Assembly: GCA_013265495.1 (NCBI GenBank)
Contig: MU057991.1
Location: 124,001 to 188,000 of the forward strand
Direction of reading: 5' to 3'
Length of the DNA: 64,000 nucleotides
From: Vicugna vicugna
Lineage: Eukaryota
Position numbers and translations under genes: made by a program. Below, piece after piece: positions 14,850 to 52,406 of the stretch (the stretch's first letter is position 1; each line of letters starts with the position of its first letter). The notes below the pieces were generated by a model. The model worked only from the letters and a program-made list of their open reading frames with translations, was not told the DNA's origin and did not search any database.

Positions 14850-15780
14850 CCCCAGCATTTCTGGGTCCCAGCCTCTGCGCAAACAGCACGTGGCCGCCCC
14901 GCTCTGAGCACGGGCCCTGCCCCTAAGCCTCTCCTTGCCGAGGCGATCCATGCCGGTTCTCGGCTGTCATCCCCTTCAAGGGTCGGCTGCTGCCGTCTGG
15001 GCACGGATGCCGCCCCTTCCAGGCGGGACAAAGGAAACCCATCCGGCCACCGCCTGGATGGGGAGGCGGATGCAAAGCGCGCGGCCCCGTGAGAGGCTGG
15101 GACCCACACAGGGGGAAGGGTCCCCGGGCTCCCGGGGGTCGGGCAGGCCCTGCGGGCGCGCGGGGACGCTTAGTCCCTCGGCGCCCCCCGCCCTGCTCCC
15201 GGGACCCCCGGGACGCCCCGCCCGCGCGCCCACGTGCCGCCGCCCCACCCCCCCGNNNNNNNNNNNNNNNNNNNNNNNNNNNNNNNNNNNNNNNNNNNNN
15301 NNNNNNNNNNNNNNNNNNNNNNNNNNNNNNNNNNNNNNNNNNNNNNNNNNNNNNNNNNNNNNNNNNNNNNNNNNNNNNNNNNNNNNNNNNNNNNNNNNNN
15401 NNNNNNNNNNNNNNNNNNNNNNNNNNNNNNNNNNNNNNNNNNNNNNNNNNNNNNNNNNNNNNNNNNNNNNNNNNNNNNNNNNNNNNNNNNNNNNNNNNNN
15501 NNNNNNNNNNNNNNNNNNNNNCGCGCGCGCGGGGTCGGGGGCCGGGGGTGCTCGCTCCCCTGTGGGCCCCCCGACCCCCGACCCCGCGCCACCGGCCAGA
15601 TCACGCGGCCCTCGGCCGCACACGCGGAGCCCCCGCCGGCGTCACCGCCCGGGACACGCGCCCCCGGTCAGCGCGCCGCGCCCAGGCACGACCTTCCACG
15701 CAGAAAACCCCGAGGACTCAGACACGAAACCGACACCGCTACGCAACACGTTCAGTGACGCTGCAGGACGTCAAGCCACA
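14850..15780. promoter_or_regulatory. CpG island 1 (contains a 266-N gap); candidate LANCL2 exon 1/promoter
   Basis: Very high GC and CpG density on both sides of gap 15256-15521; GC boxes (ccccgccc) and an E-box cacgtg near 15231. Confidence 0.7.
15256..15521. other. Assembly gap (266 N)
   Basis: Run of N. Confidence 1.
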
Positions 15781-26379: not shown

Positions 26380-27380
26380 ACGGAGAGCAGCGGGAAGACG
26401 GAAACCTCACGAGGAAACGTGCTTCCACCCAGCACGAAGGCAGCTGCGCACCAGCACAGGCCCACGGGTTCCCTCCCGGCCGCCTTCCCCCCCACGGGAA
26501 CGTTCATCCGGACGCCCCGCGTCCGACCCCGGGGCGCAGGGGTCGGAGCCGTCAGGGCGACCCGACTGCGCAGGAACAACGCGAATTCCCAGCGCGGGGG
26601 CCCGGGGCCAGGCGGCAGGACGGCGGCCGGCGGCGGTAAGGCAGCCGCGCGTCAGCGACCCCGGCGCCCGGCCCGCACTCCCGAGCGCCCAGGCCCGAGG
26701 CGCCAGGACGCGCCCACCGGGAGGAAAGCGGCGACAAGACACACGGCCACAGCCTCCCAGGGCCCCGTCGCCCGGGAAGGACCGCAGCGCCGCGCCGGCG
26801 AAAGGCGCGCAGAAGCGCCCGGTGCCCGGAGCCCCCGCCGCGGGGCCCAGGCCGCACCCCGGGCGCAGCGCGCGGCGCGGACGGGTGACGCGCGCGGCGC
26901 GCGTGGGTGACGTCGGCGCGAGCGGTGACGTCAGCGCGGCGAGGGGGGCGGCGGGTGGACGCTACCACCGCCGGCGCCCCCCGCCCCCNNNNNNNNNNNN
27001 NNNNNNNNNNNNNNNNNNNNNNNNNNNNNNNNNNNNNNNNNNNNNNNNNNNNNNNNNNNNNNNNNNNNNNNNNNNNNNNNNNNNNNNNNNNNNNNNNNNN
27101 NNNNNNNNNNNNNNNNNNNNNNNNNNNNNNNNNNNNNNNNNNNNNNNNNNNNNNNNNNNNNNNNNNNNNNNNNNNNNNNNNNNNNNNNNNNNNNNNNNNN
27201 NNNNNNNNNNNNNNNNGAGGGGGGCTGCGGCGGGCTGGGCGCCCCGGCGGGTCCCCTCCGCGGACGCTGCTCCGGCCGCCGGCGGCGCCGCGCGGACGGC
27301 GTCTCCGGGGAGGGCGGGTCCCGGGCCTCCGCCGGGGGAGGGGGCGGGGGAGGAGCCACCGCCTCGCTCTCCCCTTTTGC
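26380..27380. promoter_or_regulatory. CpG island 2 (contains a 228-N gap) with clustered CRE/ATF sites
   Basis: Extreme CpG density; TGACG at 26886, TGACGTCG at 26908 and perfect TGACGTCA at 26926-26933; GC boxes on both sides of the gap. Confidence 0.8.
26989..27216. other. Assembly gap (228 N)
   Basis: Run of N. Confidence 1.
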
Positions 27381-30137: not shown

Positions 30138-31732
30138 AAGGAGCAGGAGACATCAGTGAAGTCATAGCTCTGCAGGGCTCCCCAGGGCCCCCCACCTCTC
30201 AGGCAGGCCACCCCCCAAACTCCCAGCCCTCCGAGGAACACGAGTCCAGGGCCTAAGGAGGAATGAGGACCCAAACCTGCAACATGGCACTGTGAATCCA
30301 TGGTAACTGGCCGTCTCCCGGGAGTCCGAGGGCAGTGGCCGTGGTGAAGTCACCATCTCCGATGTGTCCTGCCTGAATGTGTGTCTGTGGGACAGCCCGC
30401 CTCTACTGTCCTTCCTGAACCGCCTCTGGACAAAGGCCACACCACCAGCAGAAGGCTCCCAGCACCAGCTCATCTGGAGTGCCCCCAAACGTAAGGGACA
30501 GAAAGGGTGACTCGGACAGGAGATCTCTGCTGGGGCTCAGCCGTCTCCAAGGTCTGGGGTCACTCAGGCAGTCAGTTTGCAAGGAATTTGTCTTCCGTTA
30601 CCTTTTGAGGGCAAGGCGCAACCACCTGCCCAGGGACAAAACCTCAGTGGATTGCAGACTTGGTGGAATTCCAAAAACAATGCGGGGAGGGGGCTCATCC
30701 CTGGCTCAACCCTGACGGGCACCGTTAAAGAGAATGCGGTCACACTGAAGGAAGAAGGGGCTTCACGGAGAACCATGCACCTCCCCGCCCTCACCGCAGA
30801 CCAGGCACAGCCTGTGGGGCGGCAGAGGCGGCCCGGGGCCCTGCGAAGCGAATACGGCCCTGGAGGAGCAGACTTCTCCATGAACACAGGAGACACACTC
30901 TGAAATATCCGCAAATCTTCCGCCAGGCAGAGAAGTGGGTTGCAGGTAATGACAGTGAAATGGGACTTACTACTGTTCATGAGAATGCCTTCATAATCTA
31001 GGGTGTCTGGCCTACCTGGTACACAGAGCAGGGGCAGAGATGCGATTTTCCCAGGAAAAAATACAGTATTTTTCACTCATGAGTATTACATGATACCTTT
31101 TCTACTTGGATGCTCTGTCTCCACCTTGTTAATTTTTCTTTACCTCTTCTCCGTGCAAAGAAACAGGCCTTTCCTGATGCAAACAGGACTTCCCCAGGAC
31201 AGCCTTCCTGTTCATACAGAAAGAGCTGACTTGCTGGCTAGTTAACAGCTGACCTCCTTAGCAGACAATGGCATGGAAAGTTCCCCCTCCTGCTCTGCAT
31301 CATGTGCTGTATGAACTGCCCAGAATCGTCAAGTCTATGAAGACAGGAACTAGACGAGTGATTTTGAGACAGGAGGAAAGAGGGCAGGGAAGTACCACGA
31401 AAAGACTGTCACAGGAACCAGCCCTCCAGGTTCCCGGGGTTGACAGGACTCAGCCAGACGGTGCTCCCTGGGACTCTGTCACGTGGTCACAGTCAGACGG
31501 GGGCTGGGGCTGGAGTCCCCCCTAAACTGCCCCTCACACGGGCCACCAGCTGGACCTCGTATGGGGCGGCAGCTGGGGCGTCTCCGTGCGGACGTCCCAC
31601 GTGGCCTGGGCGTCCTCAGAGCATGGTGGCTGTGTGCCAGAAGTGAGCGCGGCTCCTTTTCTGAGCCAGCTGTGGAGGTCTTGCACCCCCACGTTTTATC
31701 AGCAAGGCAGCGCCACAGGCCTAAGACAAAGG

Positions 31733-32097
31733 TGCCAGGGACTGAGTTGGGTCACCCCCAAAATCCGTATGTTGACACCCTGAATCCCAACGTGAGGATG
31801 TCTGGAGAGGAGGCCTTTGGGAGAGAATTACATTTAAACGAGGTCGCGAGGGTGGGGCCCTCGTGGTGGGATTAGGGCCCTTATGAGATGCCAGATGGCT
31901 GGTCCCCCCTCTCTCTGGCTCTGTCATGTGAACACACAGCAAGACGATGGCACCTCCAAGCCAAGGAGGAGGACTCTCAGCAGGACCCGAGCACACGGGC
32001 ACCTCGATCGCAGACTTCCAGCCTCCAGAGCTGTGACCGTGAGCGCTGCTGAGCCCCCGGTCTGTGTTGTGTAGTTGCAGCCGTCTGACCTACGACA
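31733..32097 (+). mobile_element. MLT1A/B-like MaLR LTR
   Basis: cccccaaaatccgtatgttga...gaggcctttgggag...gggtggggccctc...gggattagggcccttatgaga...gacttccagcctccagagctgtga. Confidence 0.8.
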
Positions 32098-35000
32098 GAA
32101 ACCCCAGCCCTGGATGGGAGGCGTGTGTGAGACCTTGCAGGCAGGCGTGTTTGAAAACCGCCTGGAACAGAATGGACGCAGACAGCAGCTCTGGGACACC
32201 GCAGGCCTCACGCTGGGGAGCCGGGGGCTGAGCCGCCTCTCAGGGCTCATGGATGATCAGCAGCGGAGCTACCCTGTGATCCACGCACCCCGTGACCGCA
32301 GCCCCCAGACCTTCCCCAGCATAGACGGCGGGGAGGCACTTGGTGGCCTCACCAGGGCGGCAGCACAGGACACCCTCACTCACCTTGAATCCCCAGCACG
32401 GAGCGCCCTGCCCAGCTGAACAGACGGCCTCGGGCCTCAGCACCAGCAGGTGCGGCCTGGGAGCCCCAGGCAGGCGGGGTCGCGCCGTCCCTCCCCGCGT
32501 CTGGCTTTGCGCCGCCTGTCGGGGCACAGAAGCCACTAAGTGGACACGGTGCCCCCGCTGCCCGGGGGCAGAGACGGCGCTGGCCGCAGAGGCTGGCCCT
32601 GGTGTAAGCAGCTGTGGGAAGGCATTTCTTCTCTGAGGGGCAGCGAGGGACGTGGGAAGGGGGACGGGCTGGGGCAGAGACGCGGGGATGCGGCTCAGAT
32701 GTGGGTGACAAGATACAGTGGGGCTGGGACGCAGCCAGACGTCCCCAGGCCGCTGCAGCCTCCCACTGCTGCTCCAGGCTGGCTCTGCGACGGGACGTCG
32801 GCCACGGGCGACAGGTGGCTGGCCCGGGGCCCGGCTCCCAGGGCCCCTCCCGCCCTCAGAACAAGACAGTGACGTCCATGGGCTTCCATCGGCCGTGCTG
32901 GACTGGGGTTCAGTAAACCGGCGTCGCTTGGGACGGCAGATGAGTGGACGTGCCCGGTGGGGAGCTGCGGCTGACACGCCGGGGCTCCCTGTCCCCGGGC
33001 AGCAGGACCCTGAGGAATGGACACAAAGGCCCACAGAGCCCCAGGGCCCCCACCGAGGGGTGGGCCTGGGGGGGCTGCTAACTGGGGAAACATGAAAAGG
33101 ACACAGGGAAGGGGACCTGAGACGAAGCGGGAAGGGATTCCCATAAGCAGGGGGCTGTCACCAGGAGGTCTCTCAAGAGCAAAGAATCACCCGAGTGATG
33201 GCTGTTTAAGGGGTTCCCGTATGCCTGGCAAGAAGCAAAGCCCTTGGCCGTCCAGGGCTGCGGCTGGGCCGTCAGACGTGCCCGCACAGCCGTTCACAAC
33301 TCATCGCATCAGCCGACCTCCCGGCAGCCTCTGAGGGGATGTCATCCCCTCTCTGCAGGAGGGGCCGGGGGATGGGAGAGACCCCAGAAGCCCAGGCTGG
33401 GGGGCATGAGTGTGGGTGCAGGGGAGAGCCTTGGCCATCTCGAGCTGGGACAGGGGCTCCTGGCTGATGGGCAGGCAGGCCCTGGACAACACGCAGTCCT
33501 TGCTTGGTCCAAAGACTCCGCAGGGCGCTGCCGCACATTATTAGAAAACAGGAACTGGAAACAGCTCGGGACTGGAGAGAAGACCCGCCTGGTGCGTGGA
33601 TGCTGTGACCCCCACCCCCCGAGGGCGGGGCTGAGGACAGCCAGCAGGAGAGGATCTCTTGCTGACCCACGCCTCCCCCTGTCTGGGCCTCAGGCCAGGC
33701 CCCGGCCGGAGGCAGGTGGTGGACGGCGGGGCCACCGTTCCGGGGTCACCTCCGCCAAGTCGCCAGCCTGCTCTGGGCTTCAGTCCCTCTAGTTACGCAA
33801 TGGAGCCAGGACACCCTGACAGTCGTGGCCAGGAACAAGCGGGGCAGTAACTGCAGGTGTCCCCTGCAGGTGCCTTTCCGAGGAGAAGGCAGCGTGACTG
33901 ATGTGTTTCACGGTCTGGATGGCTCCCCGGCGGGCAGACAGGCCGGAGCCCAGAGCTGCTTCCACGTGGCAGGATCCAGGGCCCGGGCTTGGCTGAGCCC
34001 AGAGCAGGTGTCAGGACAGGACCTGGGGCCTCAGTGCCTGTTCCCGGAGCGTCCACGGCTTCCCCAGCTACCTGTCCCCCCCGAACCCCAGATCCTGCGG
34101 CCACTTCCTATTGAATAGGAATGTCTCCTCTCCAGCTCTCCTCTTTCGGTTCAGCCCACATCCTCACTGGCTTCCCTCCTTGTTCAACGGGACCTCCTTC
34201 TCTTTCCCAAAGGCCTGATCCTCCAAATTAGATGGTGAACACGGTGTAGCTCAGCCCCGCACCGCTGGGCCTGCGGCCCCCGCCCCGGGAAAGCGCGGGG
34301 TCAGTCACTGGGACGGGCTGGGGTTTGGCGAGGATGTCAGCCTTCACGGTCCTGCAGACGGCAGGTGGCAGTGGTTCCTCGCAATGCGGGATTTGGAAAA
34401 AGATCTCTTAGTTTGCCAGCCAAGGAAGTCAGACAGGGTAGGGAGTGGGTAGGGAATCTGAGACCCCACTCTTACCCTTTGCCAAGACCCAGGCTGCGGA
34501 GGGGAAGGAAGGGGTTAAGGGAAGCTGAGGGAGGAAACGGGATGGAGCCAGTGTGGGTTTCTCTGTCCCAGATCCAGCTCTGAGGAGCCCTCACCGGCAT
34601 TGCCACCCTGGGAGCAGGCTCAGACCCCTGTCCATCACCTGCAAGTCTCAGGAGCCCGCCCCTCCCTTCCCCCTCCCACCCTGCACTCACCGTCCGGTAA
34701 GGCACTCACTGGGGAAGGTACTTTGGCAGTGTTAACCAAACTTATATACATTAAATATATATACCTTTTTGTATGTCACTTACATCCCAATAAACTGGGA
34801 TTTTTTTAAATGTCAAAATGTACGTATTATCAATTTCATTTGCAGGAAAGCATTCTAAGAAAAGAAGTCAACATGTCAACAGAGATACATGTTTAAAGAT
34901 ATTCATCTAGGAGTTATTTACGACAGTGAAAATTTGGTAATAAATGGTGTAAATGACACAGTGAAATACTACGCAGTCATTAAAATTTTTCTTGGCAGAG

Positions 35001-36891
35001 AATTTGCGTCCACACGGTAAGATGCCAAACACATTCGGGTGAGGTGAGGAGATCAAAAGCTTCTGGGCACTGAAATCAAATTTTGCATTATTTAAATGAG
35101 AGGGAGCGAGAAAAGGAAGGAAAGAATCAAGGTAACAAAAGCTCTTAAGCAAAATCTCGATATTGATTAGTTGTGAGATTATGAGTAATTCCTTTTTATG
35201 ATTAACATACATCATCAGATTTAAAAGTCTGTACTCACTAACATGAACGAGAAAACTATCTAAACACACTTACCAGCCTCATTTATTTGCCATCCTCACG
35301 CCTTAGATATGTTTTAAAGGAAACAAGCTCCAAAAATTTCAATTCAAAACATGAGATTTCAGACATACTCCTATAAAAAGAGAGGTGTTTAGGGGAAGTG
35401 GGTTTCCCTCCTGGACCCCACAAATCTCTGCTTTTATTAGTTTGAAAATGTTTAGTTATCAGCAATAGACAAGGAAGGGTCAGGAGGGGACCTCTGGGCC
35501 TGGGCAGAGTGAGTGGGGGACACGGGCCATCTGCTGACACAGGTTTCAGAGGGAGGTGGGGTGGCAGGGCTGGCTTCCCCAAGGATGGCCACCAGTCCCT
35601 GGCCCATCCTGCTCCTCAGAAACAGGCCATGTCCTCAGGGTGAGATTGGTCCGGGAAGGGGGAGCTTGTGGGAGGAGACCTGGCACCGTGGGCCTCACAA
35701 GTCCTCCATCTGACCCGCCAGGCCCTTCACGTGTCCAGGCTGTGCCCAGGCTGAGCCCCAGACAGCCCGTCCCTGCCCCTTTGACCTCCCCACATGATCA
35801 TCTAAGAACCCTGGTGAATCCGCCTGTTCCCGGCGTGGGCATCACCCCCGGACCAGTGAGGGTCACAGAAGCCGAGAACCTGGGTGTCAGGATCTGCTCT
35901 GTAGCAAGTTCTCTAAGGGCCTCCCGGGCCCCTTAGCGGGTGAAGAGCGCTGGTGGGAACTCCTACCCCTCCTCAGGGCCACCTCCTCCAGGGAGCCCTC
36001 CCTGACCTCTCGCCCACGAAGTCTGCTGCGGGCACAGACGGAGAGCCGGGCAGGGCCCGGCAGAGAGTGTCTAGACCACACTCGTGGGGACCTGCGTCCC
36101 CAAGTCTGCTCCTCCCACGGATGTGCACTCACTGGAGGAATCCTAGTTCACCTCGCGTCCCCACGGGGAACCTCCGAGGGGCTCTGCTCAGGGGGGGAAG
36201 TGCGTCACACGCGGGAATCCCTCCCTGCACCCCAGTCCCTCCCCCTGCCGAGGGAGTCCCTGCTGGGGGAGCAGCTGGGAGGTGGGACCCCAGGATTCAG
36301 GGGGAGGAACCACGTGGAGTCCAGATACACGTGTCTGACTCCACACCCGGCTCCTCAGGGAAGCAGCTTTCCCAGAGGTCACCCTCCTATTCTCAAAGAT
36401 TCCGCAGGGCTCTCCTGCAGAGCTGTCACCAGGGTTCACTCAGTGCCCGAGGGCGGCAGGGTCACCAGAAGGTTCTGCGTCTTCTCAGTCCTCTTCCCTG
36501 ACGCCGCAGCTGCCCAGCACAGCCCCTCTGTCCTCCTCCTTCATCTCTGTGATGACCCCCACCCCAGGCCAGCACCCAGGGCTCCACACAGACCCCTGAG
36601 AGGCCCCTCCCCGGCTCAGAGGACCCCACTCCCCTCCTCCCACCAGGCCCCGGGTGGGGGTGAGGACAGCGGCCCGCTTGCAGCCCCTGGACCCCCAGCC
36701 TCGGCCCCCCTCCCTCCTGCCCCCGTGCAGGACACAGCCTTCATCCCGGGGTCTCCACCTGCACCGCCTGCAGGAGGGGGTCTAGCTGGAATCCGGGCTG
36801 AGACTCGGGGACCTCTCCCTTCCTGTGTGGGATTTAGGACACGTGTATCTCTATAAAGTTATATGCAGACAACTGTTTCTCTTCAACCACC

Positions 36892-36897
36892 TTTATT
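36892..36897 (-). terminator. Candidate poly(A) signal for the cTAGE5-like ORF
   Basis: tttatt on plus = AATAAA on minus, at the distal end of an AT-rich 3'UTR-like tract (~36870-37520) embedded in GC-rich flanks. Confidence 0.55.
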
Positions 36898-37680
36898 GTA
36901 AAACAGTTACAGAAATTGGCAACCCTCTCACACTTCCCAGGCCTTCGAAACAGCGAACATTGTCCAGCATCTGACTTGTGGGTGTGTGTGTTTCGCATCA
37001 AAAGAAAACATGTTAATTGTCACACTTAGAAATGCTAAATGACAAACCATCTGAAACAAGACAAGGGAGGTGAACAAGAAATGACAACACAGCAAACAGT
37101 GGTTGCAAAAACTCAAACTTTTCTAATCTATGAATTTAGTACAGAACTGTTACGAACTTGGGACAAACTATAAATTAAGACTAAGCTAATAGAAATAATA
37201 CGTAGTTAGAATGGGATCCTCTTGCTTAAGTTTTTCTTTTTGTCCAGTTTCTTTTTTCCCCTTTTTTAATGATGTCTTTTGTTTTGGGGGGTTTTTTGTT
37301 TAGGTTTTGAAATGACCCCAAATTTGCTCAGGTCAATACCCAGCAGTTACCTCCACGTTGTCAACAGCGGCCTGATGTGCAGAGAATTCCCATCGTCTCA
37401 CACATCTCTAGCAGGACACACTGAGAGGATGCTTCAGGTCACAGGGGCATTTAATCTCCACCCAAATACAACACTATACGCTACATTCCTAAGGGTTTCA
37501 ATGGAGGAAGTGGGAACTTTAGAGAAAACATGGACATTTAAACACTCTCCCGGCGAGGGACAACGCCCCACTCCCAGGAGACACTGTGGCCTCGAGGCAC
37601 CACCAGGACAAACGAGGGAGCGCTGGATGGTCGCGCACCCCCTGGACACCCACACGGACGGGGTGCGGTGGTTGCAGGGC

Positions 37681-38229
37681 TCAGACCCGGGTCAGAGCGG
37701 GGGGCCGGCGGGGGGCGCTCAGCAGGTGCGCAGCCAGGGCCTCCAGGTGGGTGACTGTGTCCTGCAGGGCCCGCTCCCTCCTGGCGATCGCCTCCAGCAG
37801 CCTTGCTTTCTCCTCCTCCTTCTCTGTGACTCGCTGCCTCCATGTGGCGACGTACTGGGCCAGCAGCTCCCTGCATCGTGGACACATAGGCTGTTTCCCG
37901 GGGCGCGCTGGAGCTCGGGGGCCGGGGGGCTCCCGGCGCCCCTGGGGGGGCGGGGGCGCCGGGCTCCCGCCAGCCTTTCCCGCGGGGTCCCCGGCACCCT
38001 CAGCCCCTGGCACGGCGTCCCCGTCGTCGGGAGAGCGCCCCTCGCCTGGGGTCTCCCCGCTGTGGGAGGAGGACCATCTGTGTATCAGGAACAGCAGCCC
38101 TGCCACGCACACCAGGGCCCCCCAGGGGAGCACCGGGGTCAGGCTCTCCCAGAGCAGCAGCAGGGCGGCCCCCAGGCGCTCCAGCATCCGGGGGGACGGG
38201 GCCCAGGGGGCAGGGAGCAGGCCCCCCAT
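37681..38229 (-). CDS. Intronless cTAGE5/MIA2-related single-pass membrane protein, 182 aa (possible 221-aa form from ATG 38346); probable retrogene
   Basis: Uninterrupted ORF, Kozak gcagccATGG. MGGLLPAPWAPSPRMLERLGAALLLLWESLTP..LPWGALVCVAGLLFLIHRW aligns Met-to-Met with recalled cTAGE5 MEEPGATPQPYLGLLLEELRRVVAALPEGMRP..FPWELVICAAVVGFFAVLFFLWR. WRQRVTEKEEEKARLLEAIARRERALQDTVTHLEALAAHLL aligns without gaps to cTAGE5 [41 protein letters not shown] (11/41 identical by eye). Confidence 0.7.
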   Translation of the reverse strand: MGGLLPAPWAPSPRMLERLGAALLLLWESLTPVLPWGALVCVAGLLFLIHRWSSSHSGETPGEGRSPDDGDAVPGAEGAGDPAGKAGGSPAPPPPQGRREPPGPRAPARPGKQPMCPRCRELLAQYVATWRQRVTEKEEEKARLLEAIARRERALQDTVTHLEALAAHLLSAPRRPPALTRV

Positions 38230-39914
38230 GGCTGCCAGGGCCCCACAGCTCTCTGCCTCTGAGGCCAGGGTCCTCTGTGTCACCACTGGCCGCTCGGAAC
38301 CCTGCGGGGCGTTCCGTCTCCAGGTAAACAGGTCCCTGACGACCATCTGTTGGGCGGGGGAGGGGAGGCCAGCCGGGTTCTAGGAAATGGTTCCCCCAGC
38401 TGGGCTCTGGAGTTCGTGATGTCACTTGTCCAGGCACCGGGGGAGGGGGCAGGGCCGATCCCAGCCTGGAGCTGGGCCACTCGGCCCCCGCCTGGCCCCC
38501 AGGACACCCAGGGGGTCGGCGCAGGGCCAGGCCAGGACCCCTTCTGTGCACGAGGGCAGGTCTGGGCCGAGTGAGGGGGACCCCGTCCCTGGGGGAGGCC
38601 CGTTCTCCTGAGTGAAGGTCCCCAGCAGCGGGGAGGGCTGTGCCCCCACCCAGGGCCAGGGATCTGTCCCCTGAGGCTCCATCTGTGCTGTGAAGGGGGA
38701 GGTGGGGGACGGCCGTGGGGAAGGCCCTAAATGTTCAGTAAGAGAGCTGGAGTCCAGGCCCCGAAGCTCGGGGAAATGAGTGGGAACGGGCAGGGCTGAG
38801 AGCTTGCTGGCCTCAGTGCAGCCAGCTGGTCCCTGTTCATCCCTGGGCTCCTGGGAGGGGGCCTGTGATGCTGGCTACAGGCAAGGGCCACTTTCTCCTG
38901 GGGGAAATATTTCAACCAAGAGTCATAAATATGGTAATTCATCATGTTCACTCAGAGCTGCCAGAGCTGCAGGAGCAGTTAGCAGCGGATGATTTAAATT
39001 AGCATTGGCTGAGGCCCGGTTCCAGGTTCTGTGGACCAACCTGGATATGTGGGTCCCCCATGGCCTCACAGAGGGCTGGGAGCAGTGAGGACAGGGCCCT
39101 GTCATCACCTGTTGACCCCCAAAGTGCGGTGGATCCCGCATCCCCCAGAGACCCCTCTTCTCTTGCTGGCCCTACCAAGGGCTGCTCTAGGGCTGGCAGA
39201 GCCCCCCCCACCCCAAGGGGTGGTGCAGAGCAAGTGTCTGTCTTCCCCACAAGGACCTCCGCCCTCAGGGCCCCAGGCATCTCCTTGTGGTCAGAGAAGC
39301 AGGCAGGGAGGGAGTCAGGCCACCTGGCGCAGGGCGAGGGGGATGCTGAGCAAACAGCAAACATCTGGAGGCCACTGGGAGTCCCTCTGCTGCTGGTGGA
39401 AGTGAGACGTACAGTGGAGAGAAGGGAGCCCGAGGGGAGGATGGGGGGCTGGGTGGAGAGACCTGAACCCCAGTAAGGACACCCAAACGTGGGTGCACAG
39501 CGCAAAGTCAGAAGTGGGCTTAAAGGGAGTCCCGCTGGGAAAAATTCCAGCCACAAAGTGTAATAGAGACACTGACAGGTGGTTGCCCAGCGCGCAAATG
39601 AGGCTCTGCTTGTCTCTAGTGACATAAACACTTTTAACTAATAAAGCGGGAAAGAGAAAGTTCTTCCTCCCACAGAATCTCAGCTGACAAGGAGGGGACT
39701 GGCGAATCAGCATTTTCTGGAGGCAGTGTGGGGACAGGGAGGAAACAGGGAGGGAGGGGGGGATGGGGGGAGGATACAGGGGAAGGAGAGGAAAGAAGGT
39801 GGGGGGAGGGGAACGAGATGGGGACAGAGATATTGAGGGCTCGGGAGCATCAGAGGGACCCCAGATCTCATTCTTCTGTCCCACTCTGGCTGTTGCTCTA
39901 GAACCCAGGACATT

Positions 39915-40335
39915 TTTCTCTCTTTTTAAATTGAACTATGGTCAATTTACAATATTGTGTTAGTTTCAGGTGTGCAGCAAAGTAATTCAGTTACATGTAT
40001 TTTTTTCAGATTATTTTCCATTATAGGTTATTACAAGATATTGCAGATTGTTCTCTGTGTTACACAGTGATTCCTTAGTGCTTATCTGTTTTATATACAG
40101 CGGTGTGTATCTGTTAATCCCAAACTCCTAACTTATCTCTCCCCCGATTCACTCTCCCCTTTGGGAATCGTTAAGTTTGTTTTCTATGTCTGAGTCTGCT
40201 TCTGTTTTGTAAATAAATGCCTTTGTGTTATTTTTCAGATTCCACACATAAATGATATCACATGATACTTGTCTTTCTCTGATTTACTTCACTCAGTATG
40301 ATAATCTCTAGGTCCATCTATGTGGCTGCAAATGG
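39915..40335 (-). mobile_element. L1 3' end
   Basis: tttttaaattgaactatggtcaatttacaatattgtgttagtttcaggtgtgcagc...agattccacacataaatgatatc...tatgataatctctaggtccatc. Confidence 0.85.
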
Positions 40336-41199
40336 GAACCCCCCACCGCCAGCAGGAGGGGCGATCCCCTCCACCCCGTCCCCGCCGTGGTGTTGCCTTG
40401 CTTGGGGAACAGTGATGTTTGGATGTGGGACGTTTTGCGGCTCTCTATAAAAACTGCTTTGGCTTCAGTTTGCATCCAAGTCACCAGCTCCAGGGCAAGA
40501 GAAAAAACATACCCTACATGCCTTTGCACTCAAATCTTCCCAAAAGAGCAAATATTTGCCCAGGAAAACACCAGCTGCTCTTCTAAGGCCCCCTAAATGC
40601 CCAGCAGTGTGGGCGGTGCACTCTTGCAGGGACAGGAGGAGAGGGACCAGCAGGTCCTCGGCCAGGCGTGGCCCGGTGTGGCAGCGGCCCTATAGGTGCG
40701 GGCGGGGAGGGCCGTGCAGGGAATCCTCTTTGAAGGGTTTCTGTGCACCCCTGCATTATGGCCTGGGGTTTCATACCAGGAACCACACAGGCTCCAGGCG
40801 TCCTTAGTGGTTAGATACAGCCCCCCACCCTCGGGCTGGCACCCTCAGTACCTCGAACAGACAGTGCCCCGTGTGGGGAGAGGTCATAGGGCACTCCAGG
40901 GGCAGGGGCGGTGGTGCTGGGGGAGGAAGGGGGTGCAGTGAAGGGCGGGGAGCAGGGCCCCTCGCTCTGGGGTGAGGGTTCTTGAGGAGACCACAGAGCA
41001 TGGCACACACCATCTCCGCCCCACACCCCAAATTCCCAGGCCCGCCAGCACAGAGGCTGCTCTGCGCCCTCTCACGGCGGTTCTGCAGTGAGAACGCATC
41101 CAGCCCGCATCTGGCACCCCAGCCCCACCTCCCCTCCTGGGAAAGACCCTGTCTTCTCGGAAACTGCCCAGCAGCGCGAATTCAAGGCCCGCAGCCGGC

Positions 41200-41990
41200 C
41201 TGGCGGATCTGAAGCTCAGGTGCCTACCCGGCCAGCCGTGCGGGCCTGGGTTCAGTCCCCTAGCATGCCCACCCGCATCCCGGGCCCACGGCCGGTGCAA
41301 GCGGAGGCCGCGGAGCCCAGGCGGAGCCTCGCGCGGCGAGCAGGCGAGGGTGAGGAGGCCCTGGACGCGTGGCCCCGCCCACCGGCGGCAGCCCCGCCCC
41401 GCCTCCAGTGGGCGCAGCCTGCAGCTGAGGACGCACACGCGGTCACGCCCACAGCCCCGGCCCCCGCCCAGCTGTCCCCATCGGCCCCGCCCCCGTCCTG
41501 GCCCCGCCTTCGTCCTGGCCCCTCCCGGGAGACGCAGCCTTGAGAGGGCGCACGGCGCAAGCGCTGGGCGGGGGCCCCACGGCGTTGCCGTGGCTACAGG
41601 CGGCACGCTCCGCTGGGGCTGCCCTACACTTCCGGGGCGGGGCGCGGCCTCCGGAAGTGCGTAGCAGCCCGGGGCCATGGCGGCGCTCGCCGTGCTTTCA
41701 CTGCTGCTCGGCGCGGCGACCTGGCCGCCAGCCTGGGCCTCGCGCGTGGTTCTCGCCCGGCCAGCCGTCGGCCGGCATCCTGGCGGGGGCGGCGTCCCGC
41801 AGACGATAAAGGCGCGTCGGCGCCACCGGCGAGGCTGGTGGACAGGGACCGGGGAGGCGGCGGTGGCCGGGGCGGGGCTGTGGGGCAGGGGGGATCGGGG
41901 TCCCCTCGGCCTCGGGCGCCGGGGCTGGGTGGAGGGGCGAGCCGGGGTCGCCCTAGGCTGTCGCGGCTTCCCAGAGCCCCCGGGAAGGGC
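41200..41990. promoter_or_regulatory. CpG island 3: duplicated POFUT2 promoter, possibly bidirectional
   Basis: High CpG; several GC boxes (ccccgccc), X-box-like gttgccgtggctac (41584-41597), inverted ETS/GABP pair acttccgg (41628-41635) and ccggaagt (41651-41658) just upstream of the POFUT2-like ATG. Confidence 0.75.
41677..41805 (+). pseudogene. POFUT2: POFUT2 pseudogene exon 1 (signal peptide)
   Basis: MAALAVLSLLLGAATWPPAWAS then, after a ~2-nt deletion, FSPGQPSAGILAGAASRR; matches recalled human [44 protein letters not shown]. Donor mutated (cg|ataaag). Confidence 0.93.
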
Positions 41991-42417
41991 AGGCTGGGGT
42001 TCCCTCTTAGATGAAGCGGGGCCTTGCCCGGGGCTGGAAGAGCCCCAGAATCACATGTTGCAATGGGGTGGTTTATCAGCCTTGTGTGTCTGCAGCGAAA
42101 TTTCAGTTCCATCCAGATGTTGGTTCCTTCGGGAAACCTCAGGAATAAGCAAGAGTCAGTGCAGTTCAGCGGTTACTCAGGGCTTGACCCAAAACAGGGT
42201 GTGTGGGGTGTAGGGATGGTACATGGGCCCCTTCCTCTCGGGGCTGGCAGTCTTCAGGGATTAGAGGCCCCAGCGGAGGAGTCCATTCTCACCTGCAGTC
42301 AGGGAGGTGGTGGGAAAACTTAACAGAGAAGGGAGGGAAGTGACGGCGGTAAATCATGACAGAAGTCGGGACCCTTGCCTGGCTCTTGTGTGGGGGAGTC
42401 ATGCCTAGGATAGATAG

Positions 42418-42875: not shown

Positions 42876-43124
42876 GAGAACAGGTGCTCAGGTGCTAGTC
42901 AGGTGCTTAGCTGGTGTTAAACAGATGCCAAGATGTTTTCTGCATCTGCTCTCAGGCTCTTTGAGTAATGGGCCACCTGGAGATGGGTGGGCAGTGCCTC
43001 CACTTTACAAACCAGAAGCTGTTGAACTTGCTTGGAGTCTGGGCCAAGGGCTGTGGGGGAGGGAGCCAGGTATCTTGTGCAGAGGCCTGGCCCTGAAGGA
43101 CTGCTCTCCTGTGCTCCCTTCCAG

Positions 43125-43355
43125 GTACCTTCTGTGCGATGTCAACCCCTCCCACCCAGGGCTTCAGCCTCCGCAGGGACGTCTACACCGACATCCTCTC
43201 CCTCCTGAATACCCTGCTGAAGGTGGAGGAGTGGGCGCTGGTGCTGCCCCAGAGGCCTGACACCCACCAGGTCCGAATTCCCTGGTCGGACTTTTTTGAT
43301 CTTCCGAGTCTGAACAGAAGCATCCCCGTCACTGAGTACAGGCAGTTGACTGCAG
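43125..43355 (+). pseudogene. POFUT2: POFUT2 pseudogene exon 2
   Basis: YLLCDVNP [+4-nt frameshift] [31 protein letters not shown] [PWGRLYHW deleted] [35 protein letters not shown]. Acceptor ttccag and donor gtgagg intact; the catalytic Glu of PPEGFN reads Gln. Confidence 0.95.
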
Positions 43356-43844
43356 GTGAGGTGGTGGTCGTCTGACTGGGGCCAGATGATCGTTGTTCTG
43401 GTTCTGGTGTGAACGTCGGGCCGTCTTGCTTCGGGCCTGTTGGCTTAGCCTTTGCTCTGCGCGAGGGCCCTGCTCGTGTCTCCTGCACGTCCGGTGATCT
43501 TGGTCTTTGCGTAGTTTTTCTCAGGAAATAGATCTGAAGTGTCTGAGCTCTGTGTCCCCTCCCCTCTGAAAACCCTGGCTTCCTGGCTGAGATGGAGCAG
43601 TGACGAGGAGGCCGCTGCTGCAGAGGCTGGCCTTGTCCCAGCAGGACTCGCTCCCTGTGCAGACAGGGCTGTTCCCACCTGAAGGAAAGCACAGCGCGTG
43701 TGTCGCACGGACCACATGCTGGCTGAGACGTGTAACCACGCATCCAGTTTAATTTGGCCCTGCTCAAGCTTGTCATTTTAATTTTTTAAAGAGGAAAGGG
43801 TTGAAGAGTTTCTTTGAATAAAGGTATTTAGAGCTTATAATTGG

Positions 43845-44420
43845 TTTTTTTTTAATCGAAGTCTGGGTGATTTACAATGTTGTGTTGGTTTCAGGTGTAC
43901 AGCATAGTGATTGTAGTACGTATAAACAGTCTATTCTTTTTCAGATTCTTTTCCATTATTGGTTGCAAGATATTGGATATTGTTTCCTGTGTTATACAGT
44001 GTTGTTTTTCTGTTTTGCATATGGTAGTTTGTATCTGTTAATCCGAAACTCCTTATTTATCCCCTCTTCTTTCCGGTTCGGTAACTGTAAGTTTGTTTTC
44101 TAAGTCTGTGAGTCTGTTTTTGTTTCGTAGATGAGTTCATTTGTATCATTTTGAAAGAATTCCACATGTAAGTGGTATCATATGATGTTTCTTTTTCTGA
44201 CTTACTTCACTTAGTATGATAATCTCTAGGTCCATCCGTGTCGCTGTAAATGGCACGAATTCATTCCTTTTTATGACTGAGTAATAGTCTGTTGTATGTA
44301 AATACCACGTCTTCTTTATCCGGTTGTCTGTCGATGGCCACTTAGGTTGCTTCCGTGTCTTGGCCGTTGTAAACGGTGCAGCCGTGAACACTGCGGTGCA
44401 TGTGCCTTTCAGAGTTAGAG
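43845..44420 (-). mobile_element. L1 3' end
   Basis: Minus-strand ORF 44146-44391 reads MFTAAPFTTAKTRKQPKWPSTDNRIKKTWYLHTTDYYSVIKRNE..MDLEIIILSEVSQ, the L1 ORF2 C-terminus, followed by L1 3'UTR. Confidence 0.92.
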
Positions 44421-52348: not shown

Positions 52349-52406
52349 NNNNNNNNNNNNNNNNNNNNNNNNNNNNNNNNNNNNNNNNNNNNNNNNNNNN
52401 NNNNNN
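52349..52406. other. Assembly gap (58 N) with identical 23-bp flanks
   Basis: ccccgccggcccctcaccacgcc at 52326-52348 and 52407-52429. Confidence 0.95.

Follow-up and report, generated by a model that had tools for sequence, protein, structure and literature searches.

Does the 182-codon reading frame on the minus strand of this DNA encode a small cTAGE-like membrane protein that selection has kept, or is it what is left of a longer gene? An earlier note on the window (the whole stretch of 64,000 nucleotides of Vicugna vicugna DNA analyzed here) took the survival of the frame, called P0001 below, as a sign of selection. Our analysis suggests another answer. Since the frame is most likely not maintained by selection, we consider it probable that the locus is a transcribed, truncated cTAGE-like pseudogene or the exon of a long non-coding RNA. 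The rival that survives best is a lineage-specific, functional mini cTAGE-like membrane protein, selected in South American camelids, which might modulate the ER-exit-site machinery in reproductive tissue. We regard this rival as unlikely, and most of the evidence below bears on it.

P0001 runs on the minus strand from an ATG at 38229 to a TGA at 37683-37681 (37681-38229; 182 codons and the stop). Everything that had been read from its letters is present: the start context gcagccATGG (38226-38235), two hydrophobic stretches (LGAALLLLW at residues 19-27 and LPWGALVCVAGLLFLI at residues 34-49), a Gly/Pro-rich linker with the motif CPRC at residues 116-119, a helical C-terminal part, an AT-rich tract 3' of the stop and an AATAAA at 36897-36892. 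The frame is open upstream of the ATG as far as 38379, where an in-frame ATG at 38346 would give a form of 221 aa. In an AlphaFold2 model built on a 12-row alignment (mean pLDDT 65), helices are predicted at residues 13-30, 36-56 and 117-171, the last with a pLDDT of about 94, and residues 58-116 are disordered. The first two, hydrophobic helices (38062-38193) align to the N terminus of the family described below and would form its membrane-anchor region; the hydropathy maximum (2.07) falls at residues 31-49. The disordered linker (residues 57-116, 37882-38061) is read in the family frame in this genome, and the single long helix (37717-37881) is homologous to family coil 1. The strong Kozak context, together with the two hydrophobic helices and the confident 55-residue helix, favors a functional membrane protein.

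In the portion of Saito 2014 (PMC4164946) used here, human MIA2/cTAGE5 (804 aa) binds Sec12 through coil 1 (residues 61-300) and TANGO1 through coil 2 (301-650), and its residues 651-804 are proline rich; the domain facts quoted in the earlier note are found there. That coil 1 of the human protein binds Sec12 speaks for a modulator at ER exit sites. Against this, the helix of P0001 has about 55-60 residues and matches part of family coil 1, whereas the Sec12-binding coil 1 construct of cTAGE5 has 240 residues in the same portion of PMC4164946. Binding of Sec12 by the shorter helix would be a prediction from the alignment and the structural model.

An open frame is a poor guide in this region. 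The G+C content of the ORF is 74%, and 182 codons stay open in 1-4% of random sequences of matched composition. P0001 is overlapped by seven open frames of 121-329 aa, all six reading frames being covered, and the 64-kb window holds 13 ATG-ORFs of at least 182 aa. The earlier note had itself cautioned that GC-rich DNA readily keeps frames open, and the cheapness of open frames counts against a selected mini-protein. The G+C content by codon position (77/61/85%) is coding-like and counts in its favor. An antisense ATG-ORF of 316 aa (37312-38262, plus strand), to which Pfam assigns no family, is longer than P0001 and illustrates the ease with which frames stay open here. What lifts P0001 above chance is homology, not the openness of the frame: a chance ORF without relation to cTAGE is excluded by a profile comparison with hhalign (99.4%, E 8.6e-22).

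That comparison was made with profile A1, which consists of 12 full-length intronless cTAGE-like family members of about 490 aa. It covers 177 columns and places residues 1-177 of P0001 on residues 1-236 of the full-length member P0024, Met to Met. Because the profile matches in this way, the Met-to-Met homology to cTAGE5 proposed from the sequence holds at the level of the intronless family, with the anchor and part of coil 1 kept. A phmmer search with P0001 among 1.84 billion representatives gave seven matches, five of which are family members (P0002, P0003, P0006, P0007 and P0008; E 2e-24 to 8e-4, with 2e-13 for P0003 and 7e-10 for P0006). The other two (P0004 and P0005) match over 12-16 short stretches each and were dropped as low complexity. 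P0006 (502 aa) comes from transcript-sized contigs, and its cluster includes a deer hypothetical protein. By source name, the relatives of P0024 include a "CTAGE family, member 5-like protein [Camelus ferus]" (P0025, 93% identity), a "cTAGE family member 15-like" from Hippopotamus amphibius kiboko (P0027) and "Melanoma inhibitory activity protein 2." The ESM Atlas clusters nearest to the family are TGO1 (0.96) and the MIA2 family (0.95). The link from the family to MIA2 is made by these source names and ESM Atlas neighbors, our comparison itself reaching the intronless family and not curated MIA2, cTAGE5 or TANGO1. Judged by its sequence, P0001 is a member of a multi-copy, intronless cTAGE/MIA2-like family of camelids and, more widely, of laurasiatherians.

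The full-length proteins of this family (about 490 aa) are laid out as membrane anchor, linker, coil 1, spacer and coil 2. Their coding region is intronless: P0001 is contiguous, and the locus of P0024 (L001) matches residues 1-478 in one piece. Genome-wide, we found 41 family matches with P0006 as the query and 70 with P0035, uninterrupted and spread over many contigs, most of them with stops; at least two loci carry intact ORFs (L001, 488 aa; L010, 485 aa). Other searches added little. Pfam gave no family for P0001 and, among five relatives, none above the curated cut-off; the ESM Atlas gave no usable match to P0001; PDB searches by sequence and by profile returned generic coiled coils only (best E 0.05); and a metagenome scan with P0001 gave 595 pattern matches, 0 of them confirmed. 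A word-indexed search with P0001 returned P0002 alone and missed P0003 and P0006, which phmmer had seen, so that its silence is weak evidence. In exact protein look-ups, P0001, its 221-aa form and its second copy (see below) are absent from the records. This could be held against a mini-protein, but it says little, since the intact P0024 is absent too. A multi-exon MIA2 parent gene was not seen in this genome, the search with P0035 giving no ordered exon series; of two candidates for it, one (contig C11646) was spurious and the other (contig C10341) a decayed retrocopy.

How did the frame become so short? Compared with the sister short form L009 and the full-length members, P0001 retains the N terminus and coil 1, beyond which it ends, and stretches of about 47 and about 12 residues are absent from its linker. 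Family residues ~237-488 (spacer, coil 2 and tail) and about 59 linker residues are missing, and, as the earlier note had seen, the ORF contains neither coil 2 nor a proline-rich tail. The interval between coil 1 and the 3' UTR, about 800 nt of coding sequence in the full-length L003, is missing in the window; L009 lacks 627 nt, a gap contained within the wider one of the window. A tblastn search with residues 231-502 of P0006 found no match downstream of P0001. The TGA at 37681-37683 has an in-frame homologue, likewise TGA, in the sister copies L009 and L012. We rejected its identification with the ancestral stop of the family, which the alignment puts in a 32-nt piece deleted here. The retained blocks (N terminus, both linker parts and coil 1) are all in the family frame despite at least three deletions. 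That the frame is intact from the family Met through coil 1 after several deletions favors a selected protein, as does the open frame of 310 aa in the sister copy. That copy (C6935:1603000-1603731) has itself lost the family start codon, and its first Met corresponds to residue 15 of P0001. P0003 (154 aa), likely the L009 orthologue in a relative, ends early.

The alignments also bear on how the copy arose. Three blocks of the window, namely the 5' flank as far as 38834, coil 1 and the stretch 37691-36500 with the 3' UTR and sequence past the poly(A) site, match L009 at 80-85% and also align to L003, L005, L006, L008 and L012. The 5' leader and flank (38230-38834, minus strand) is thus homologous to other family loci, and the 3' UTR (36876-37680, minus strand) is common to the family. 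Since flanks and sequence past the poly(A) site align among the copies, the family copies have spread by DNA duplication. On these alignments, P0001 arose by DNA duplication of an older copy and not by fresh retroposition; the retrogene candidate of the earlier note becomes a DNA-level duplicate whose flanks are shared with L009 and other loci.

P0001 also lies in a younger duplication. The stretch 31416-38834 has a partner outside the window (C1196:205444-209807), with which it forms the two arms of an inverted segmental duplication. The two arms (loci L014 and L015) are about 44 kb apart, with a spacer of about 42.6 kb, and the identities of their blocks are 97.6%, 93.1% and 99.1%; about 2.8 kb of the window arm (32915-35681) have no counterpart in the other. 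These are the only two near-identical copies in the genome, the next closest being 85% identical. Over 1854 nt that include P0001, the arms differ by 17 substitutions and no indel (99.08% identity): 8 differences in the 549 nt of the ORF vs 9 in 1305 nt of flanks. Three of the differences in the ORF are non-synonymous (A21G, P102S and K112E) and five are synonymous, for a dN/dS of about 0.24 (one-sided binomial ~0.04, by hand calculation on 8 differences). The ratio favors a selected protein, although with so few events it gives a weak hint of constraint.

Deeper comparisons are less favorable. Against L009, its nearest paralogue, P0001 has a dN/dS of 0.70 in the N-terminal block (59 codons) and 0.88 in the coil (60 codons), which weighs against the rival; against other paralogues the values are 0.39-1.12 and 1.45-2.11, respectively. 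The family evolves fast, with a dN/dS of 0.57 between the intact full-length members L001 and L010, so that this measure separates live from dead copies poorly. By the same token, the range of 0.7-0.9 does not set P0001 sharply apart from live copies, a point that remains in favor of a functional protein.

P0002 is a 318-aa record without a start, from a close relative, and its coil is identical to that of P0001 at 55 of 58 residues. Its linker is read in the other two frames of the window, and it joins the coil frame only at ELLAQ; it has 43 extra residues and runs through the stop of the window. The same alignment includes 27 residues from an untranslated stretch further downstream, 25 of which are identical. 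RNA contigs of relatives from two studies (X5, 1194 nt; X6, 1265 nt) cover 36876-37634 and 37699-37991. They are shorter than the window by 25 and 26 nt, respectively, across 37699-37991, have 69 unlike letters in place of 64 nt around the stop, and match the window at 92-93% identity in the 3' UTR. Since the differences in linker length are no multiples of three and the window stop is not retained, the frame that joins anchor, linker and coil is not common to close relatives. The earlier note had listed frame disruption in close relatives among the findings that would speak against its claim; in P0002, X5 and X6 both the linker frame and the stop differ, and this is a point against a selected mini-protein.

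These RNA contigs also reveal that the locus is transcribed and polyadenylated in relatives. A poly-T loose end at 36876 on one X5 contig corresponds to a minus-strand poly(A) tail 16 nt past the AATAAA, placing the poly(A) addition site at about 36876. The runs that transcribe the locus in relatives include reproductive-tract RNA; transcription, reproductive tract included, is a further point for the mini-protein. The question is then which transcript is made. P0002 holds a piece that matches 41378-41103 of the window, and joining 41129 to 38059 (GAG|GTGGGG ... CCCACAG|CGGGGA) gives exactly the P0002 junction FPRRGAGRPQA. The spliced form would thus have an intron at 38060-41128 on the minus strand (GT at 41128-41127, AG at 38061-38060), which holds the ATG and the first 56 codons. 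Its upstream exon would lie at 41129 to about 41400 (minus strand), as indicated by the P0002 piece and by RNA contig coverage of 41129-41400; X5 RNA contig 22 stops matching at 41129, the exon edge. This exon sits at the edge of a CpG island (41200-41999; G+C 0.78-0.79, observed/expected CpG 0.77-0.89), which probably serves as promoter of the spliced transcript. The gene model of the relative splices the CpG-island exon into codon 57, and the spliced form therefore contains neither the ATG nor the anchor. Both this model and the absence of a CpG island from the 600 nt in front of the P0001 ATG argue against a mini-protein; the observed/expected CpG of the 5' leader and flank is 0.36-0.43.

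In favor of it, RNA contigs of relatives also fall on the ATG region (38206-38623), at low depth (8.7-10.5, vs 158-181 on the 3' exon) and with paralogue contigs mixed in. An unspliced or alternative-start RNA that includes the ATG may hence exist in relatives. The depths are those of contigs with paralogues summed and do not rank the spliced against the unspliced form; we infer that the spliced form predominates and that P0001 gives no protein product. Taken together, the evidence for selection on P0001 is weak. The step from frame survival to selection is unsupported on several counts: a dN/dS of 0.70-0.88 against L009, frames that differ in relatives, six open frames at the locus and a spliced model that skips the ATG.

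A second argument for selection had been the contrast between the intact frame and decayed neighbors, given as POFUT2 and ADCY1 exons. A POFUT-type O-fucosyltransferase first-exon fragment (Pfam O-FucT positions 6-76) is indeed found at 43097-43372 on the plus strand, and is the only relevant Pfam match among 547 of the 553 stop-to-stop frames of at least 60 aa in the window, the six left out spanning an N gap. ADCY1 exons were not found among these frames, and the 110 genome-wide matches of Guanylate_cyc include 0 on this contig. The genome has 41 Pfam O-FucT matches, 34 of which are first-exon pieces, on many contigs and with many 124-aa open frames on small contigs; some adjoin cTAGE-like copies (contigs C6935 and C6950). 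From its copy number and distribution, the O-FucT piece looks like part of a highly amplified duplication module. Since the neighbors are fragments of such a module, the comparison is unfair, and their decay is silent on selection at P0001. The CpG island at 41200-41999 has the upstream exon on one side (minus strand) and the POFUT-like exon on the other (plus strand); it is a candidate bidirectional promoter carried in the duplication. A repeat at ~39945-40540 and ~43740-44000, probably a common SINE-type element present twice, stands out in all runs by its very high contig depth, which reaches 390,000 in DNA run X15, and many joints link its two sites.

A more elaborate form of the membrane-protein reading would have South American camelids keep a 182-aa ER-membrane "mini-cTAGE," pared down through in-frame deletions to the anchor and 55 residues of the Sec12-binding coil, doubled by the inverted duplication, expressed in reproductive tissue and acting as a decoy or modulator of Sec12/cTAGE at ER exit sites; we hold this fuller version to be more doubtful still. 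The spliced transcript suggests another product, a small soluble coiled-coil protein or other short ORF. In this genome the spliced form, read in the old frame, contains a 68-aa ORF from Met115 (MCPRC...) in the frame of the coil, no coding block is better conserved between the window and P0002 than the coil, and RNA contig depth is highest on the 3' exon. However, P0002 uses another frame for the part of the linker that contains Met115, which therefore lacks conservation as a start; relatives have a different stop; and the untranslated stretch downstream is as conserved as the coil. We find such a product quite improbable. Least probable of all is an assembly artefact, with a locus truly single-copy or frameshifted and the second inverted copy or the exact linker frame in error, for although the linker is rich in homopolymers (C-runs of up to 8 bases) and the contig (271 kb) lies in a duplication-rich region with N gaps, the arms differ at 17 sites without an indel over 1854 nt, which is not what a simple collapsed or duplicated haplotype gives, and in DNA run X15 the window base at 37757 and at 38189 is kept at a depth (~44-45) that is the same as for single-copy contigs. 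Other differences in X15 (R14L, T158K and a 2-nt gap at 38249) were rejected as window specific, their depths indicating mostly paralogue contigs of 82% likeness. The N runs in the window lie at 15256-15521, 26989-27216 and 52349-52406.

The reading as a transcribed, truncated pseudogene or non-coding exon can be put as a sequence of events. P0001 is the front half of an internally deleted, DNA-duplicated intronless cTAGE/MIA2-like gene. The window copy and L009 have lost the coil-2 half, after which the window copy lost more, on both sides of the coil-2 gap and in the linker. About 4.4-7.4 kb around P0001 were later duplicated in inverted orientation. Transcripts would start at the CpG-island exon (41129 to ~41400), splice into codon 57 and end 16 nt past the AATAAA, and the 182-codon frame would be the remainder of the old coding frame in this lineage. 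As it stands, P0001 would then be an ordinary outcome, one truncated copy of a large, partly dead family. A mini-protein, if made after all, would amount to a naturally occurring separation-of-function variant of a factor that recruits Sec12, and a kept "mini-cTAGE" with dozens of sister copies would mark a cTAGE-type gene expansion outside primates.

The locus can be compared with several known systems. It resembles the ~490-aa laurasiatherian cTAGE-like genes in its 5' leader, 3' UTR and intronless coding region, and their proteins in its Met-to-Met homology, hydrophobic anchor, linker motifs and coil 1. It differs from these proteins (P0025, P0027 and P0024) in lacking residues ~237-488 and about 59 linker residues and in ending at a non-ancestral stop. 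Set against the published layout of human MIA2/cTAGE5, P0001 has the same order of a membrane anchor followed by a coiled coil; unlike it, P0001 has about 55-60 helical residues and neither coil 2 nor the proline-rich domain. The primate CTAGE genes offer another parallel, since in camelids too DNA-level duplication has multiplied an intronless cTAGE-type gene, and many of the numerous copies are dead. The differences are the camelid host, the ~490-aa size of the family proteins and the fact that P0001 is a deletion derivative. Primate CTAGE copies are longer than the ~490-aa camelid family and have kept the proline-rich tail. In the portion of PMC4949931 used here, which cites its reference 214, the CTAGE expansion is called primate specific and is traced to one retroposition in the haplorhine ancestor followed by DNA duplication; general background on the cTAGE family is given in the part of PMC7829582 consulted. 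Camelids (and, by source names, hippopotamus, deer and rhinoceros) also have many intronless cTAGE-like genes, some of them intact, although that portion of PMC4949931 calls the expansion primate specific. Finally, transcribed processed pseudogenes and retrocopies can acquire a new 5' exon and a promoter from a CpG island nearby, as described in the part of PMC4772013 used here. The P0001 locus resembles these cases in splicing an upstream CpG-island exon into its body and in using its own polyadenylation signal. It differs from them in that the acceptor lies inside the old coding region, so that neither the start codon nor the anchor survives the addition of the borrowed exon. The locus would thus illustrate how an old retrocopy can be captured by a duplicated CpG-island promoter and lose its own start codon through splicing.
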